Origin: Salinivirgaceae bacterium
GTDB taxonomy: Bacteria > Bacteroidota > Bacteroidia > Bacteroidales > SZUA-534
Direction: 5' to 3'
Length of the DNA stretch: 64,000 bases
NCBI GenBank assembly: GCA_017551905.1
Contig: JAFZKK010000149.1
Location: forward strand, 9 to 64,008
Shown: one piece after another, positions 9,426 through 64,000 of the stretch
Layout of the letters: every line of letters begins with the position of its first letter
Numbering within the stretch: position 1 is the first letter of the stretch
The notes under the pieces: generated by a model
Database searches by the model: none
What the model was told of the DNA's origin: nothing
Seen by the model: the letters and a program-made list of their open reading frames with translations, nothing else
Position numbers and translations under genes: made by a program

Positions 9426-10526
9426 ATGGCACAGTTCAACTCGTTTTTCAATAAGTTGCTTTTCGATGGCAAATATCGGATAATCAGACATTTGCTGTTC
9501 CAATTCCCGATATTTATGCTGTCGCTCTGCATATTCGGCACCAACGACAGCCGCCTTTTCGATTTTCAGTTGTCGTTGGTTCCCGTATGGTTGGGATTCT
9601 ACGCTTATCTGATAATGTGTTGGTACGTAAATATTTATGTGCTGACGCCGCGATATTTGCTCAATGGTCGGATTCTGAAATTCACACTTCTTGCGCTGTT
9701 GCTCATTGCGCCAATCGCGATTTTGAGAATTATGGTGGTGGTGTTGTCCGACGCGAGTCAATTTCCGTTGAGTATCAGTATTATAAACTTTATAGGAAAC
9801 ACCCTGACGTTGGTTTTCCTGATGGCTGCGCCAACAAGTTTGGCCCTGTTCCGACAGATTGCGCTGCAGAATCTTCGCAACAGCGAACTGCAGGCCGCCA
9901 CAGCGCATACCGAGTTGCAAATGCTTAAGCAACAGATAAATCCGCACTTCCTGTTCAATATGATAAACAATGTGAACGTGCTTGTACGCCGCGAGCCCGA
10001 GCAGGCTTCAGCGTTGCTTTTCAGGCTCGAGGACCTTATCCGCTATCAGTTGGCCGACAGCAATCGCGAGCAGGTTAACTTGCTGTCCGACATTCAGTTC
10101 CTTCGCGATTTTCTTGACCTTGAGAAGGTTCGCCGTTCAAGTTTTCGTTTCAGTATCGACACCAGCGGCATTGCCCCCGACATTGAGGTGCCGCCGTTGC
10201 TTTTCATTCCGTTTGTCGAGAATGCCGTCAAGCACAACAGCGACGGCGAAAACGAATCGTGGGTGAATATAAGTTTCAGTCTGTCAGATGGTTTGCTGAC
10301 GTTTGTCTGCCAGAATTCCAAACCGCCCGTTGCGCCCGTACCGTCGAAAGCAAGCGGCATTGGCCTGAAAAATATCAGCCGCCGCCTTGAACTACTCTAC
10401 GGCAACCGCCACACGCTTTCAATTACCGACGAAAACAGTATATTTACGGTGAAACTTTCGATAGATTTGAGAATTTGGATGAAGGATTTATTGATTGCGA
10501 ATAGCGTGACTCGCTGCCGTCTGTAG
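9426..10526 (+). CDS. sensor histidine kinase, LytS/YehU family (His_kinase + HATPase_c)
   Basis: Multi-TM N-terminus. Phospho-acceptor box QINPHFLFNMINN, N-box FVENAVKHN, G2 box ASGIGLKNISRRLELLYG. The ATG at 9426 lies 3 nt after the upstream TAG. Confidence 0.85.
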   Translation: MAQFNSFFNKLLFDGKYRIIRHLLFQFPIFMLSLCIFGTNDSRLFDFQLSLVPVWLGFYAYLIMCWYVNIYVLTPRYLLNGRILKFTLLALLLIAPIAILRIMVVVLSDASQFPLSISIINFIGNTLTLVFLMAAPTSLALFRQIALQNLRNSELQAATAHTELQMLKQQINPHFLFNMINNVNVLVRREPEQASALLFRLEDLIRYQLADSNREQVNLLSDIQFLRDFLDLEKVRRSSFRFSIDTSGIAPDIEVPPLLFIPFVENAVKHNSDGENESWVNISFSLSDGLLTFVCQNSKPPVAPVPSKASGIGLKNISRRLELLYGNRHTLSITDENSIFTVKLSIDLRIWMKDLLIANSVTRCRL

Positions 10527-54824: not shown

Positions 54825-56516
54825 ATGTCTCTAATATCAATATATCAGGTTTTGCCGCGATTGTTCGGAAACAAGAACACGAATCCGGTTCTGAACGGCT
54901 CGCGCGAGGAGAACGGAGTGGGGAAGATGAACGATTTTACTCCGCACATTTTCAGGCAGATAAAGTCGATGGGATTTACCCACATCTGGTACACGGGGCT
55001 TATTGAGCACGCCCGTTGCACCGCCGACGAACAATTCGGCATACCGGGCGGCAATCCGCGCATAGTCAAGGGCCGCGCCGGTTCACCCTACGCCATAACC
55101 GACTATTATGACATCGACCCCGATTTGGCGGTTTCAGTGCCTAACCGCATGAAGGAATTTGCTGATTTAGTGAAGCGTACACACGCCGCCGGTCTGAAGT
55201 TCATTATCGATTTTGTGCCAAACCATGTGGCGCGTCAGTATCATTCCGATGTCAAGCCTGAAGCCGATTTCGGGCTAAACGACTGTCAGGAGTGGCACTT
55301 CTCGCCGCTCAACGACTTCTACTACACCGGTGAGCCGCTGCATCTGCCTTTCGGCTCGGGCACCAATATCGATTTGCAGACAACATACGAGGAAAATCCG
55401 GCAAAAGCCACCGGCAACGACCAGTTCTCGGCTTGGCCGTCGATTAACGACTGGTACGAGACGGTGAAGCTCAACTATGGTGTCGATTACATGAACAATC
55501 AGCACAAACAGTTTGCTCCTATGCCTGTCCTGTGGCCTAAAATGGTTGATATTCTACTCTATTGGGCGCAGAAAGGTGTCGATGCCTTCCGTTGCGACAT
55601 GGCCGAAATGGTGCCGGTTGAGTTCTGGCATTTCGCGATAGCCAAAGTTAAATCGCAATATCCTGACATTCAGTTTATTGCCGAGGTTTATAATCCGAAT
55701 ATGTATCGCGATTATATCTTCACTGGCGGATTCGATTACCTCTACGACAAGGTTGGCCTTTACGACACGCTGCGAGGCATAACTTGCTGGGGCGCACCGG
55801 CTTACGACATCACCCAGACGTGGAAAAATCTAGAGGGTATCAACAATAAGATGCTCCGTTTTTTGGAGAACCACGATGAGCAACGCATCGCCTCGCGTTT
55901 CTTTGCCGGCTGCGCCGAAAAAGCCATTCCGGCAATGCTTGTCACAGCTACAATCAACCAAGGCGCGCTGATGCTCTATTTCGGGCAGGAGGTGGGCGAA
56001 CCGGCCAATGGCGAGTCGGGCTTCAGCGGCGACGACGGGCGCACCACAATCTTCGATTATTACAACGTTCTGGCGTTTCAGCGCTGGTATAACGGCGGAA
56101 AAGCCGATGGCGTCTTGCTTAGCGACAGTGAGCGCCGGCTCCGCGATACATACGTTTCGATTTTGCGATTGGCAACCACCGAAAAATGCTTCACCGACGG
56201 AGCCTTCTACGATTTGATGTGGGCCAACAGCAATGTCGATAGCTCAAAGATTTACGCCTATCTGCGTCATACTGAGGGCGAAGCTATGCTTGTGGTTGTC
56301 AATTTTGATGCTTGCAGTGCCCGTGATTTCAACATTCATATTCCGCAGCATGCCTGGCAGACAATGGGTTTCAACACAATGGGCGAGGTGTCGGTTAGTG
56401 CTGTTTTTGGCGGCAGCCTGAGCATACGGCAATCGGCACAAAGCATCGACGAGACAGGTCTGTTCGTTCAAATGCCGCCCATGAGCGGAGTGGTGTATAA
56501 AATAAAGGAAGTCTGA
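54825..56516 (+). CDS. alpha-amylase-family glycoside hydrolase (GH13)
   Basis: GH13 regions are IIDFVPNHVA, DAFRCDMAEMV, FIAEVY and FLENHDEQR. Confidence 0.85.
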   Translation: MSLISIYQVLPRLFGNKNTNPVLNGSREENGVGKMNDFTPHIFRQIKSMGFTHIWYTGLIEHARCTADEQFGIPGGNPRIVKGRAGSPYAITDYYDIDPDLAVSVPNRMKEFADLVKRTHAAGLKFIIDFVPNHVARQYHSDVKPEADFGLNDCQEWHFSPLNDFYYTGEPLHLPFGSGTNIDLQTTYEENPAKATGNDQFSAWPSINDWYETVKLNYGVDYMNNQHKQFAPMPVLWPKMVDILLYWAQKGVDAFRCDMAEMVPVEFWHFAIAKVKSQYPDIQFIAEVYNPNMYRDYIFTGGFDYLYDKVGLYDTLRGITCWGAPAYDITQTWKNLEGINNKMLRFLENHDEQRIASRFFAGCAEKAIPAMLVTATINQGALMLYFGQEVGEPANGESGFSGDDGRTTIFDYYNVLAFQRWYNGGKADGVLLSDSERRLRDTYVSILRLATTEKCFTDGAFYDLMWANSNVDSSKIYAYLRHTEGEAMLVVVNFDACSARDFNIHIPQHAWQTMGFNTMGEVSVSAVFGGSLSIRQSAQSIDETGLFVQMPPMSGVVYKIKEV

Positions 56517-56766: not shown

Positions 56767-56996
56767 TGTTACAACTTTTAGTTTCCCGATTACGAACATA
56801 CGAAAAAATACTATTGAGGTTACGATTTAGTCGAAAAAAACTGAATAAGATGGTTGGAAAGCCTGCATTTCGCAGGTTGACAAGAAATGTTTTTTTATGG
56901 GATACATATTTAAAAAAGAGTATTATTGTAGTTTAAAATGGAATATAGCCGGAGATATATTCAATATTCACGGCTGCAAAATTGGATTTAACAGAT

Positions 56997-58076
56997 ATGG
57001 ACGGATTCAAAAACATTGAGATTAAGAACTTCAGAGGCATTGACCATCTGACAATTGATGATTGTTCACGCGTGAATGTCTTTCTCGGGCAAAACGGTTC
57101 GGGGAAGTCATCAATCCTTGAAGCATTATTGATGATTGCAGGAATGTCAAATCCGGAACTTCCCCGAAATATCAATATGTTACGTTCAAAGGGAACATAT
57201 GGGCATTTTCTTGACGTAAGGTATATGTTTCACAATTTAATGTTAATGAATCCTCCGGAAATTTCCACAATTCAAACAAAAGGAGCGAAACGACATCTTA
57301 CTCTAAAAATGCCATTTGTTTTCGACGAACAATCTCAAACCACAACGCCGATAGGCCAAATCCAACGGTCCGACGCAATGGTTCAAGTCAATCAAGTGGA
57401 GATGAATTTTGATATTACAGAAGACGAAATCGTTAATAGGTATAAAAGCACATTGTCCTTCAACCAACAAGGTCCCATTAGGGGAAAAATTGCTGACGGA
57501 TATCAAGAAAAAATGTATGCATCACTGATTCCTGCGAATATTCCTACCGGGAATTCGACAAGTGATTTGTCGGAATTAGTAAAACGGAAAATGAAACAAT
57601 TGGTTGTTGACCGGCTTGTCTATTTTGATAATAGGATAACGACCATTGAAGTATTGTCTGACGGCGTTTTTGTTGGTATCGAAGGTGTGCCGGAATTATT
57701 ACCGGTCACAATGCACGGCGATGGTATGTTCCGTTATTTGACAATTGTGGCGGCGTCCGCCAATCCAATATCCGATGTTGTTCTGATTGACGAAATCGAA
57801 AATGGTCTGCATTATTCAGCCTACAAAAAACTCTGGGAAGCCATCTTTGCTTTGGCAACCGAAACAAACAAACAAATATTTATAACAACCCACAGCAAGG
57901 AAACTCTATACCGGTTGAACGAAATGCTTGAAGAGAAACCCTGCTACCAAGATGCATTGCGGCTATATACAATAGAGAACACCAAACTTAAAGGGCAGCA
58001 AGCATACAAATATTCCTTTGAGGAACTGAATGCCGCTTGCAAGAATGGTGTGGAAATTAGAAGTTTAGCATTATGA
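56997..58076 (+). CDS. ABC/SMC-type ATPase (AAA_21-like; AriA/OLD-family ATPase-like)
   Basis: Walker A GQNGSGKSS, signature-like HGDGMF, Walker B VVLIDEIENGLH, and His-switch ITTHS. The ATG at 56997 is preferred (the track start at 56982 is a TTG). Confidence 0.75.
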   Translation: MDGFKNIEIKNFRGIDHLTIDDCSRVNVFLGQNGSGKSSILEALLMIAGMSNPELPRNINMLRSKGTYGHFLDVRYMFHNLMLMNPPEISTIQTKGAKRHLTLKMPFVFDEQSQTTTPIGQIQRSDAMVQVNQVEMNFDITEDEIVNRYKSTLSFNQQGPIRGKIADGYQEKMYASLIPANIPTGNSTSDLSELVKRKMKQLVVDRLVYFDNRITTIEVLSDGVFVGIEGVPELLPVTMHGDGMFRYLTIVAASANPISDVVLIDEIENGLHYSAYKKLWEAIFALATETNKQIFITTHSKETLYRLNEMLEEKPCYQDALRLYTIENTKLKGQQAYKYSFEELNAACKNGVEIRSLAL

Positions 58077-58684
58077 AAGAACGTTTTCACATTATTGTTG
58101 AAGGAATTGCTGATTTAGTGTTTTTTGAACAATACTACCAACATCTGTTCGGGAAACCAGCGCCAGAAGGTTTTATTTTTAAAACTGACGGAAAAGACAA
58201 TTTGCATAAGTTTGTGAACAAGATGCGTAGTATGACGGCCAATGACGGGGTGAATCTTGTTATCTTCGATGCAGATAAAGACATAGATGCAAGGCGAAAC
58301 GAATTATTGGAGTGGAAAGAAAAAGCGGGCGTTAACTTCGAGTTGTTTTTGCTGCCAAATAACAAAAATAAAGGTGCCTTGGAAGATTTGTTGGAAAGCA
58401 TCATAAATCCGAATAACCGACCGATCTTCAATTGTTGGGAAGATTACGAAAAAGAACTTGTCAAATTAGAGATTCCTGGCCGCACACCACCGCCATTAAC
58501 CACTCCCGCCAAGAAAACAAAGATTTATGGATATTTGGAGGCATTGCTTGGACCAACGAATGACGAAAAAGAATTGATAAAAGAGCGAAATAGAGAGTAT
58601 TTCAACACAAAACATTGGAATTTGGATGCGGAGTATTTGGAGCCGTTGAGGAGGTTTTTAATTGAGCATTTAAAAGAAAACTAA
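58073..58684 (+). CDS. TOPRIM-like protein (DUF4435/DUF4276-like; AriB/OLD-nuclease-like partner of the ATPase)
   Basis: N-terminal IIVEGIADLVFF (TOPRIM Glu) and VIFDADKD (DxD). About 200 aa. The start overlaps the ATPase stop (ATGA at 58073-58076). Confidence 0.55.
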   Translation: MKERFHIIVEGIADLVFFEQYYQHLFGKPAPEGFIFKTDGKDNLHKFVNKMRSMTANDGVNLVIFDADKDIDARRNELLEWKEKAGVNFELFLLPNNKNKGALEDLLESIINPNNRPIFNCWEDYEKELVKLEIPGRTPPPLTTPAKKTKIYGYLEALLGPTNDEKELIKERNREYFNTKHWNLDAEYLEPLRRFLIEHLKEN

Positions 58685-62457: not shown

Positions 62458-63158
62458 GAACACATTGCTTAATAATAGATGATGATAATCAGGAAGAATA
62501 TTTCAATACTCATGTGCAGCGCGTATTAGGAGCTGAAGGTATTGAAGTCGTTCCTGTTTTTATCAAACCTACAGAGCGAAAATACATAAAACCAGACCAT
62601 TCCGGTTTGGATATAGATTCCATTATTTCGGATTGTAATAACTTGATAGAAACATTAGATGTATCCATCATTGTTTCTGATTATAAGATTGCCACAAGAA
62701 AAGATTCTTTTACTGGTGTGGATATAGTTTTAGCTCTTATAGAAAGATATCCCCAAATTTATAAGATATTATATTCTGCCACAATTAAAGATGCCATTAA
62801 ACAAGTCTTATCATTATTGCCTGCGAAAGCTAAAATTGATGATATAGATGTCGATAAAGTTATTGAAGATTTGGCAAGGATAGCCAAAATAAATGATTTT
62901 GTCAGTGGTAAAGGGTATGAGCAGAAACTAATAAAACATCTTCGCAATCCGGAAATACAATATAAGCAGCATTTAATCAATGTTCTTAAAGAATGTGCCC
63001 CAGATATTGTATTTAAATCATGTTATCCTCCGTTTGTTGGAAAGACATTAAAGGAAATTGGGAAAGAAATAGAATCTGATACACTCCAAGGACGTGAATT
63101 TCAGGAAGAATTGATTCGTCAAACACTTGCATATATAGTAGCCGTCAATCATGAGTAA
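62454..63158 (+). CDS. receiver-like (REC-fold) protein with uncharacterised helical C-terminal half
   Basis: CLIIDDD (beta1 acidic cluster), SIIVSDYKI (candidate phospho-acceptor Asp76, nt 62679-62681), KILYSAT (beta4 Ser/Thr). The start overlaps the upstream stop (ATGA). Confidence 0.45.
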   Translation: MRTHCLIIDDDNQEEYFNTHVQRVLGAEGIEVVPVFIKPTERKYIKPDHSGLDIDSIISDCNNLIETLDVSIIVSDYKIATRKDSFTGVDIVLALIERYPQIYKILYSATIKDAIKQVLSLLPAKAKIDDIDVDKVIEDLARIAKINDFVSGKGYEQKLIKHLRNPEIQYKQHLINVLKECAPDIVFKSCYPPFVGKTLKEIGKEIESDTLQGREFQEELIRQTLAYIVAVNHE

Positions 63159-63792
63159 AACTGTTTGTATATATTCTCAAGAGAGGGACGGTTCTACGGA
63201 TTTCCTAAAACCTCTATATGACCATATTTGTACGACGCTCTCTGCAGATGGCGTTGGCTATGATGCGGATAGTGAAGAGGATACTATTTCCAGAATATAT
63301 GATGCCACTAAGGATGCAGATACAATTATTTTCTTAGGGCATGGTAATAGCAAGGGGCTATATGCATGTGTTCAGGATAATTTTGAATTATTCAATCAGA
63401 AGAATGTTGCTATGTTGACTGATAAGTCATTGTTCCTACTTGCGTGTAGATCATCTGATTTTATAAAAAGATTCTCCTTAACTAATGCTATCGGCTTTGG
63501 GCATTTACCTACAAGTAATGAAGATGCTAAACATTGGAATAATGAGCATAGTATCGCATTGAATGATTTTTCTAAAGATGATATTAAACTTTACGATAAC
63601 GCAATAGTAAGTATCCTCTACAATGCGATAGCCCCCGAAACAATATCAAATTCCAATCTGCTATATAATAGGATTAAGTTACAAGCGAGTATGGAAATTG
63701 TCAAGTGTCTTATTCTGCACAAAGATAACCCGCATTACCGGAAGATAGCCGATTTGTTATTCTATTTGCAGAAAGATATACGGATACAATAA
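63151..63792 (+). CDS. hypothetical protein with caspase/CHAT-like His...Cys dyad pattern
   Basis: A hydrophobic strand plus GHG (TIIFLGHGNSKG, His64 at 63340-63342). About 35 residues later, a hydrophobic strand plus AC (SLFLLACRSS, Cys99 at 63445-63447). It overlaps the upstream gene by 8 nt. The function is inferred only from this pattern. Confidence 0.35.
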   Translation: MSKTVCIYSQERDGSTDFLKPLYDHICTTLSADGVGYDADSEEDTISRIYDATKDADTIIFLGHGNSKGLYACVQDNFELFNQKNVAMLTDKSLFLLACRSSDFIKRFSLTNAIGFGHLPTSNEDAKHWNNEHSIALNDFSKDDIKLYDNAIVSILYNAIAPETISNSNLLYNRIKLQASMEIVKCLILHKDNPHYRKIADLLFYLQKDIRIQ

Positions 63793-63821: not shown

Positions 63822-64000
63822 ATGAGGAAAAAAGCCGTAACTATTATGCCCAAGAAAAAATATACATTCATAGACCTATTTGCAGGAGCTGGCGGGCTTT
63901 CTGAAGGTTTTATTAGAGCAGGATTTGAACCTGTAGCGCACATTGAAATGAACAAGTATGCGTGTGACACTCTTCGCTCAAGGATGAAACACTATGGCTA
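63822..64000 (+). CDS. dcm: second DNA (cytosine-5)-methyltransferase, N-terminal fragment (continues past window end)
   Basis: Motif I is FIDLFAGAGGLSEGF. The start is either ATG 63822 or ATG 63846. The ORF is open at the window edge. Confidence 0.85.
   Translation, partial: MRKKAVTIMPKKKYTFIDLFAGAGGLSEGFIRAGFEPVAHIEMNKYACDTLRSRMKHYG

Follow-up and report, generated by a model that had tools for sequence, protein, structure and literature searches.

A predicted caspase-like His–Cys protein encoded at the end of a methylase, kinase and receiver cassette in a Salinivirgaceae genome

The DNA analysed here (the window) is a stretch of 64,000 nucleotides from a Salinivirgaceae bacterium (assembly GCA_017551905.1, contig JAFZKK010000149.1, positions 9 to 64,008). 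Close to its right end lie six co-directional, abutting genes, which run from the gene of an AbiLi-like ATPase to that of a 213-residue protein, termed the His–Cys protein after its invariant residues His64 and Cys99. The last four genes form a cassette that encodes a C-5 cytosine DNA methylase, a kinase fusion, a receiver-like (REC-like) protein and the His–Cys protein. In the interpretation developed below, which we hold with roughly even confidence, the His–Cys protein founds a family of minimal cysteine hydrolases, in the likeliest case peptidases, whose active site is clan-CD-like, and is encoded by the last gene of a horizontally mobile cassette for which a mechanism is proposed. The protein is probably the protease output of an uncharacterized immune module resembling restriction-modification, and it gives one branch of the previously published modules of paraMORC kinase, receiver and methylase a third component.

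The 213-residue open reading frame (ORF), the two motifs and the 8-nucleotide overlap with the preceding gene, all reported in a preliminary description of the window, were confirmed in the ORF listing and the raw sequence. His64 is contained in TIIFLGHGNSKG (residues 58–69) and Cys99 in SLFLLACRSS (residues 93–102), with a spacing of 35 residues. A regular expression for this two-strand pattern, composed of a hydrophobic strand followed by HG, 25–60 residues, and a hydrophobic strand followed by [AGS]C, matches once when ORFs of 100 or more amino acids in all six frames of the window are scanned; residue-shuffled ORFs give an expectation of 0.005 matches per window. The protein has no match in Pfam, NCBIfam, PADLOC or PHROGs, and a sequence search of the PDB (phmmer) returned noise only. 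A word-seeded search yielded 31 homologues, one of them identical and derived from a Salinivirgaceae metagenome-assembled genome (MAG), and when 1.84 billion cluster representatives were searched with a profile, at least 763 matched at E < 1e-3 and 293 at E < 1e-10. Among the matches listed, nearly all of 150 are stand-alone proteins of 205–245 amino acids. All source names read ‘hypothetical protein’, except for an Olivibacter member in UniRef named ‘CHAT domain-containing protein’. One cluster of the family was found on 396 contigs, and the family is abundant in gut Bacteroidales; a tblastn search of plasmids with a Pseudoalteromonas member gave no match. The alignments with homologues span the full length and begin at a shared start methionine, and hence the ORF is a genuine, conserved coding gene.

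Residues F61, G63, H64, G65, L70, L96, C99, S101, G115 and F116 are invariant across 24 homologues. In a set of 147 diverse homologues with a mean column identity of 27%, L19, H64, C99 and S101 never vary, and conservation is at least 90% for D13, T16, F18, F61, G63, G65, G115 and F116. The two residues that the preliminary description had put forward as a catalytic dyad are thus strictly conserved at this depth, and the consensus of the Cys motif in the same 147 homologues is L-L-[S/A]-C-x-S. Asp13, judged by its conservation, is a possible substrate-pocket or metal-binding residue. Its position in the loop after strand 1 is presumably that at which clan CD enzymes place S1-pocket residues, and it might, by way of speculation, indicate a preference for basic P1 residues.

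The structure of the His–Cys protein was predicted with AlphaFold2 from the alignment of 24 sequences, with a mean predicted local distance difference test (pLDDT) score of 94.4 and a predicted template modelling (pTM) score of 0.90. The N-terminal part of the model is composed of strand 1 (residues 4–8), a helix (17–29), strand 2 (33–35) and a second helix (45–54). Strand 3 (58–62) leads to His64 and is followed by a hairpin (70–73 and 78–81) and a short helix (86–89); strand 4 (93–97) leads to Cys99 and is followed by a helix (101–107), strand 5 (113–115) and a helical bundle (123–208). The elements of caspase-3 occur in the same order, comprising SHG, the IIFG hairpin, the LKKITNFF helix and LFIIQACRG. 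A Foldseek search of the PDB with the model returned caspase-7 as the top match (4hq0_B, E-value of 8.8e-4) and procaspase-3 as the third, with procaspase-7, caspase-3, procaspase-8 and drICE among the next matches; in all, seven caspase chains besides the top one are in the top 26. Among viral structures, only uncharacterized proteins and flavodoxin-like or deoxyribosyltransferase-like folds were matched. The model is compatible with a caspase-like sandwich, and His64 and Cys99 are expected to be adjacent in it because each lies two residues beyond one of two neighbouring parallel strands.

The family resembles clan CD (caspases C14, CHAT, gingipain C25, legumain C13, separase C50 and the MARTX/TcdA CPD C80) in the order of histidine before cysteine, and in the presence of H-G and [A/S]-C motifs approximately 35 residues apart, each after a hydrophobic strand and with a hairpin between them. 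In the His–Cys protein, His64 and the following glycine come right after the hydrophobic strand of residues 58–62 (I-I-F-L-G-H64-G), and the cysteine lies C-terminal to the histidine, after the strand of residues 93–97 and a small residue (L-F-L-L-A-C99-R-S101). Each of the 147 members was scanned against Pfam at E-values up to 1. Sub-threshold matches were obtained to Peptidase_C25 in 12 members (best E-value of 0.0022), to Peptidase_C50 in seven and to Peptidase_C80 in four, and single members match Peptidase_C13 and Raptor_N below threshold; in total, clan CD accounts for approximately 25 sub-threshold matches to about ten models among the 24,736 in Pfam. Member P0228 matches CHAT (E-value of 0.022 over residues 19–106; 14.6 bits against a cut-off of 24) and C25 (E-value of 0.024), and member P0251 matches C25 over residues 50–112, the spans in both members covering the stretch from His to Cys.

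Comparisons with individual peptidases point the same way. A search of the PDB with the family profile aligned ‘liiFLGHGssdaLyga’ with ‘FLVFMSHGIQEGICGKK’ of caspase-1 (E-value of approximately 0.5), and the hidden Markov model (HMM) of the family aligned the His motif with the p20 subunits of caspase-1 and caspase-4. Comparison of the profile with human caspase-3, the sequence of which was entered by hand, paired H64 with His121 and C99 with Cys163 (hhalign E-value of 0.0084). In shuffle tests with hmmsearch, the score of the family HMM against caspase-3 was reached by 10 of 3,000 shuffles and that against legumain by 32 of 3,000, both residues being in register in each alignment and both sequences again being entered by hand; CheY and flavodoxin decoys were at noise level. 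His64 aligns with His237 of caspase-1 and His148 of legumain, and Cys99 with Cys189 of legumain. A relationship between the family and clan CD is probable, not established.

Several results weigh against this relationship, or against an effector role built on it. No clan CD model reaches its curated threshold and every sequence link is sub-threshold. The comparison sequences of caspase-3, legumain and Yca1 were all entered by hand, and the score of Yca1 is at noise level. Among the 147 members, seven weakly match tRNA_m1G_MT and three match CbiK. The template modelling (TM) scores of the caspases in the Foldseek search are low, at 0.35–0.40 overall and 0.37–0.40 for the best matches, caspase-7 and procaspase-3, and flavodoxin-like flavin mononucleotide (FMN) reductases (SsuE, NQO2 and ArsH) as well as DNPH1 are interleaved with the caspases at similar probability, so that Foldseek cannot tell a caspase fold apart from a generic sandwich of the flavodoxin type. 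Where caspases have their p10-like half, the protein has the helical bundle (residues 123–208), and substrate-binding loops therefore cannot be inferred; in clan CD terms, the α/β domain spans only approximately 120 residues. Membership of the caspases proper (MEROPS C14A) failed on the same missing half and on the QACxG motif, which is not conserved (consensus LSCxS). The protein further differs from caspases in having none of their Arg/Gln S1 residues, with the conserved Asp13 replacing the arginine of the strand-1 loop. Finally, at one cassette locus (L011), the gene of a MvaI/BcnI-type restriction endonuclease (L011:2934–4112) lies between those of the methylase and the kinase, so that the trio could be an accessory or regulator of restriction-modification rather than a killing arm. 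The caspase-like reading in the preliminary description is partly supported: the checks run among those it suggested all favour it, none of them decisively. The dyad is invariant and the confident model has caspase-7 as its best PDB match, with family membership sub-threshold.

Table 1 Features of the His–Cys gene and its neighbours in the window
Feature	Position	Strand	Details
His–Cys protein gene, 213 aa	63151..63792	+	ATG start; ORF listing and raw sequence
His–Cys protein, predicted domain layout			α/β domain, residues ~1–120, with His64/Cys99, then C-terminal helical bundle, ~123–208 (AlphaFold2 model)
His64 codon, CAT	63340-63342	+	Motif FLGHG, two residues past strand 3 (58–62)
Cys99 codon, TGT	63445-63447	+	Motif LLACRS, two residues past strand 4 (93–97); invariant Ser101 next
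Asp13 codon	63187..63189	+	In the strand 1–helix 1 loop; motif of the family, D-x-[ST]-T-x-F-L; at least 90% conserved
Gene overlap of 8 nt, ATGAGTAA	63151..63158	+	Stop of the REC-like gene and start of the His–Cys gene
REC-like protein, 234 aa	62454..63158	+	Helical C-terminal domain
Asp76 codon	62679..62681	+	Predicted phospho-acceptor of the REC-like protein; invariant
paraMORC-type GHKL/histidine-kinase fusion, 849 aa	59908..62457	+	
His642 codon	61831..61833	+	Predicted phospho-accepting His of the H-box (..SFIHIINV..)
C-5 cytosine DNA methyltransferase, 406 aa	58684..59904	+	Cassette gene 1; Pfam DNA_methylase 5.5e-60; PADLOC MTase_II 1.2e-82
AbiLi-like ATPase	56982-58076	+	PADLOC 2e-59
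AbiLii/DUF3226 TOPRIM	58073-58684	+	
Second Dcm-type methylase, start, with the genes that follow it	63848-64000, continuing L001:10672-16991		FAGAGG motif; only 65 aa on the longer contig

The cassette is conserved as a unit. The order of C5 methylase, kinase fusion, REC-like protein (228–241 amino acids) and His–Cys protein holds at all nine loci found from the His–Cys gene, which come from Flavobacterium, Olivibacter, Pseudoalteromonas and several metagenomes, and the flanks differ among these loci. The overlap of 8 nucleotides between the REC-like and His–Cys genes recurs at L005 and L007, and overlaps of 1–11 nucleotides are present at L009, L013, L015, L016 and L017. The 8-nucleotide overlap suggests translational coupling, and coupling this tight, with overlaps of 1–11 nucleotides at every locus, fits a stoichiometric complex of the REC-like and His–Cys proteins. 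No nuclease adjoins the cassette at L007, L009, L013 and L015. HNH genes were seen near the cassette at L005, L016 and L017, and in some cases the module of three genes may work together with a restriction enzyme of the conventional kind. At L009 and L013, a controller-like helix-turn-helix (HTH) gene overlaps the start of the methylase gene; controller-type HTH genes are usual for toxic restriction modules. A further observation concerns L013 and L014 (from approximately position 10200 onward), which share a unit of HTH, methylase, kinase, REC-like, His–Cys and Rce1-like genes in two assemblies, with identical left and different right flanks; the differing right flanks suggest recent mobility or rearrangement beside the cassette.

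The kinase fusion has a four-part architecture: an N-terminal paraMORC GHKL ATPase, a conserved middle domain, a coiled coil, and an H-box with a catalytic ATPase domain. It matches Pfam HATPase_c_3 over residues 25–156 (E-value of 1.1e-18) and HATPase_c over residues 750–848 (E-value of 1.5e-17). The N-terminus resembles the BbrUII/HgiDII family over its first 160 or so residues only (NF050001; E-value of 4.6e-15, with 55 bits against a cut-off of 550), and the C-terminus resembles kinases of the RstB/EnvZ type. In seven kinase orthologues, the N-terminal Bergerat motifs (E30, N34, D37 and D72xGxG76) and the C-terminal N, G1 and G2 boxes (N759, D785xGxG789 and G810SGIG814) are invariant. His642, in the motif ‘LIHxIK’, is the sole invariant histidine ahead of the catalytic ATPase domain in the same orthologues and, by analogy with the HEF_HK H-box (PMC8011034), is the likely phospho-acceptor.

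In the REC-like protein, D9 and D10 after strand 1, S75-D76 after strand 3 and Y107-S108 after strand 4 are invariant or near-invariant. The AlphaFold model is of low confidence (pLDDT of 61.7), yet the PDB structures that it matches best are receiver domains, those of MaeR, RcsB and MtrA; the label ‘receiver-like’ that had been given to this gene holds. The conserved lysine after strand 5 was not identified in the REC-like protein. None of the kinase, REC-like and His–Cys proteins has a significant PADLOC match to any system.

The distribution of the module was surveyed by scanning the kinase alignment against one genome per GTDB species, which revealed at least 548 species-level relatives; among the matches listed are members of the Bacteroidota, Proteobacteria, Acidobacteriota, Firmicutes, Planctomycetota, Chloroflexota, Campylobacterota and Patescibacteria and one Bathyarchaeia MAG. 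Locus counts refer to the best 80 of these at least 548 relatives, analysed with local HMMs. A Dcm gene lies immediately 5′ of the kinase gene in 74 of the 80 loci. Two arrangements predominate downstream: in variant A (27 loci), an A3-type REC protein is followed by a member of the His–Cys family, with co-occurrence in 27 of 27, and in variant B (44 loci), a single protein of approximately 300 amino acids directly follows the kinase. The remaining nine loci are truncated, disrupted or carry only a stand-alone REC protein. Stand-alone REC proteins of 127–135 amino acids without a recognizable output occur at L027:5676–6062, L028:9671–10054 and L059:9247–9654, where the output may be further away or the systems may be reduced.

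The variant-B protein (for example L042:9343–10296, L024:9599–10507, L060:9378–10223 and 41 others among L019–L098) begins with a REC-like domain, which matches Response_reg below threshold (E-values of 1e-6 to 1e-3) and has an invariant D62, the residue with which Asp76 of the variant-A protein aligns. The REC domains of the two variants are homologous by hhalign (probability of 93.8%, E-value of 1.7e-7). The C-terminal domain has invariant R140-G141 and R243...H248 (‘RNxLAH’); the latter is the Rx4-6H signature of HEPN domains, and one member matches HepT-like over this motif (E-value of 0.031). From its sequence, the variant-B protein is predicted to be a REC–HEPN ribonuclease (RNase) output. 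Homology between the His–Cys protein and the variant-B C-terminal domain was considered and rejected, the comparison having found none, and the suggestion that the REC-like protein's C-terminal domain is a degenerate HEPN domain is unsupported, as only the REC halves of A3 and A6 align by hhalign.

Variant B replaces the last two genes of variant A with a REC–HEPN-like protein, which places the His–Cys protein in a slot for a toxin-type output, or effector. This argument is the strongest contextual support for an effector role. The preliminary description had inferred such a role from a supposed immune context; the effector assignment gains from the methylase-linked kinase and receiver module and from the alternation of the REC-like and His–Cys pair with a REC–HEPN-like fusion, but the association with CRISPR or CBASS that it had invoked does not hold.

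Caspase-like and CHAT effectors of prokaryotic immunity include the protease of type IV Thoeris, Csx29 of Craspase, SAVED-CHAT of type III CRISPR systems and the proteases that activate gasdermins. The cassette would resemble these in its logic, in which a protease of the clan CD type is turned on by an immune sensor and then cuts proteins of the cell. The known immune caspase-like proteases are much larger and are activated by nucleotide second messengers, RNA-guided complexes or fused sensor domains, whereas activation of the His–Cys protein would proceed via a His–Asp phosphorelay and a partner REC protein. To our knowledge, activation of a caspase-like protease by a phosphorelay or a REC domain has not been described.

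Kinases of the same architecture (HATPase_c_3, HEF_HK and HATPase_c) were described by Bellieny-Rabelo et al. in 2021 (PMC8011034), with a REC-like protein (Response_reg_2) encoded next to the kinase and a C5 methylase upstream of it in 628 strains; the same authors linked the kinases to paraMORCs. The system was presented as having two components only, for which a regulatory two-component role was proposed; no protease or peptidase is mentioned, and the neighbouring groups OG_8, 16, 20, 24 and 294 were left unnamed. The cassette in the window almost certainly belongs to this group, with which it shares the soluble kinase, the REC neighbour, the upstream C5 methylase and the setting of restriction-modification and defence islands. 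It differs in the obligatory third His–Cys protein in one branch and the REC domain with an Rx4H HEPN-like extension in the other; this HEPN-like domain seems not to have been described in that study (PMC8011034). Searches with Pfam PF19191 and PF19192 gave no match for any protein of the window or the loci, models that are possibly absent from the Pfam copy used or too narrow. No description of the third gene was found in the literature on caspase-like or CHAT partners of HATPase_c_3 kinases or in follow-ups of HEF_HK/Response_reg_2.

Detocs, a two-component abortive-infection system with exchangeable outputs (Rousset et al. 2023, bioRxiv 10.1101/2023.01.24.525353), is among the closest known systems and uses a histidine kinase and receivers as an anti-phage switch encoded by a three-gene operon. 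The Detocs mechanism was tested with mutants of the kinase histidine and the receiver aspartate (10.1101/2023.01.24.525353). In Detocs, however, the PNP ATP nucleosidase output is fused to the receiver, the sensor N-terminus is of the TPR type and there is no methylase, whereas the cassette has a MORC-like GHKL sensor, an obligatory methylase and a separate, putative caspase-like output; no PADLOC model of Detocs matches in the window. GHKL restriction enzymes and paraMORC systems (NF050001; PMC2292703) likewise have an N-terminal MORC-like GHKL domain beside a C5 methylase, but the window kinase has no nuclease domain and its C-terminus is a histidine-kinase core. Receivers, kinase fusions, peptidases and a caspase partner are not mentioned by Iyer et al. 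2008 (PMC2292703), nor does the HEPN survey of 2013 mention a REC or kinase partner of paraMORCs.

Gene order and linkage are shown, as are catalytic-type residues that are invariant in all three proteins, their predicted folds and the way in which the output alternates with a REC–HEPN-like one. The scheme of sensing, phosphotransfer, activation and proteolysis, with its substrates and a defence phenotype, is our inference. The methylase would mark self DNA, and the MORC-like N-terminal ATPase of the kinase would sense foreign or unmodified DNA or another cue of infection. The kinase core would then autophosphorylate on His642, and the phosphoryl group would move to Asp76 of the REC-like protein. 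The helical C-terminal domain of that protein, probably bound to the helical bundle of the His–Cys protein, would activate or release the co-translated enzyme, and the activated His64/Cys99 site would cleave host or invader proteins, leading to growth arrest or abortive infection. A bolder form of this scheme, put forward tentatively and with clearly less than even belief, is that, in a widespread immune system resembling restriction-modification, a DNA-sensing MORC-type ATPase fused to a histidine kinase acts through a receiver on a minimal caspase with a core of 120 residues, which would be the first phosphorelay-activated caspase-like executioner, interchangeable with a REC–HEPN RNase in sister systems, with suicide or dormancy gated by methylation state instead of DNA cleavage.

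Since its description in 2021, the module of kinase, receiver and methylase has carried no label but ‘two-component-like element’ and no assigned purpose. A caspase-style last gene in one branch and an Rx4H domain in the same slot of the other turn it into a testable defence hypothesis, with His642, Asp76 and either His64/Cys99 or Rx4H as the residues to address. If the scheme is correct, it would represent a new activation route for caspase-like proteases by His–Asp phosphotransfer, a new and very small scaffold of the clan CD type, and a class of systems akin to restriction-modification in which the ‘R’ arm is composed of signalling and a toxin, not a nuclease.

Two other enzymatic or signalling roles were weighed for the His–Cys protein, and both are unlikely. 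Strands 1, 3 and 4 have conserved residues at their C-terminal ends, the topological positions that form the active site in CheY, and the gene directly follows those of a kinase and a receiver, its translation being apparently coupled to that of the latter. With flavodoxin-like folds matched about as well as caspases by Foldseek, and Detocs as a case of a defence phosphorelay with an additional component for buffering, the protein might be a flavodoxin-like or receiver-like fold with a non-proteolytic His/Cys site (with Asp13) that serves the phosphorelay, either as an acceptor, on His64 or Cys99, of the phosphoryl group of the REC aspartate, like Hpt or EIIA/EIIB of the phosphotransferase system (PTS), or as a phosphatase or buffer that resets the REC protein, like DtcB. 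H-G, [A/S]-C-x-S and the hairpin after the histidine are, however, signatures of clan CD, not of Hpt, PTS proteins or known REC phosphatases; the sub-threshold HMM matches go to peptidases and not to phosphotransfer families, with the CheY and flavodoxin decoys at noise, and variant A would be left without a recognizable output where variant B has a HEPN-like one. Equally improbable is a hydrolase or transferase other than a peptidase, metal-dependent or not (for example an amidase, a deamidase or a thioester-forming enzyme). Its metal site or Cys-nucleophile triad would be built from Asp13, His64 and Cys99 on a scaffold of the Rossmann type, and its substrate would be a small molecule, a nucleic acid or a protein modification. 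The geometry of an Asp, a His and a Cys at adjacent strand ends makes a metal site or triad plausible, FLGHG weakly matches the class II chelatases CbiK and FetB, whose histidine binds metal, and DNPH1 and folds like that of nucleoside deoxyribosyltransferase are among the structural matches. Yet the chelatase matches span the His motif only and not the cysteine, CbiK is matched by 3 of 147 members against approximately 25 matches for clan CD families, and the top full-length structural matches are caspases.

Still less credence is given to a non-catalytic, caspase-like adaptor, a pseudo-protease like the N-terminal domain of Raptor, working with the REC-like protein and the kinase while the MORC-like ATPase or a neighbouring nuclease (MvaI/BcnI, HNH or AbiL) acts on the invader. 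Restriction enzyme or HNH genes adjacent to the cassette at L011, L005, L016 and L017, the AbiLi/AbiLii pair abutting the methylase in the window, and the capacity of MORC-type ATPases to act on DNA alone (PMC2292703, PMC8011034) are in line with such an arrangement. Against it, His, Cys and Ser are strictly invariant even though the sequences diverge widely, a pattern typical of catalysis, whereas pseudo-enzymes usually lose such residues, and there is no nuclease beside the cassette at L007, L009, L013 and L015. That the pattern arose by chance in a spurious or unimportant ORF has a negligible probability: the shortness of the motif is all that speaks for it, and it is refuted by hundreds of full-length homologues with invariant motif residues in a fixed gene context, by the confident model and by the 0.005 occurrences of the pattern expected per window. 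A cysteine hydrolase, most likely a peptidase, is the preferred interpretation of the His–Cys protein.

The surroundings of the cassette have the character of a defence island. The guanine and cytosine (GC) content falls from approximately 0.48 to 0.34–0.40 over 56–64 kb, with a positive GC skew, and the region fits a defence island that was gained horizontally and inserted behind the alpha-amylase genes (54825–56516), in which AbiL and LlaJI-like systems flank the cassette. The stop codon of the AbiLii gene overlaps the methylase start by one nucleotide, so that the six genes may form one operon in this genome; a terminator scan found no plus-strand terminator within 56.9–63.8 kb, which is compatible with one operon, and a promoter scan of the region was uninformative. 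The AbiL pair is probably a separate abortive-infection system packed against the cassette, since it is absent from all other cassette loci. Weak matches of the AbiLi-like and AbiLii-like proteins to mad3 and mad4 prompted the consideration of MADS, which was rejected: the kinase, REC-like and His–Cys proteins match no mad model, and the absence of the AbiL pair from the other loci argues likewise. Downstream of the His–Cys gene, the second Dcm-type methylase is possibly a remnant. It is followed on the source contig by genes for AAA_5 (McrB-like), RE_LlaJI, NUDIX, a 342-residue protein and Vsr. The AAA_5 and RE_LlaJI region looks like a LlaJI-like system, which may be without an intact methylase of its own.

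A stand-alone His–Cys homologue of 188 amino acids is also encoded by Prevotella phage Lak-A1 (MK250016.1; L018:3845–4411), and by Lak-A2. It carries the motifs IIFLGHG ... CCWCHAS and scores 44 bits against the family HMM. In Lak-A1 its gene adjoins a FolD-like gene, and the 8.2 kb examined hold no kinase or receiver. The phage protein could serve as a decoy or in counter-defence, or it could represent a separate use of the fold.

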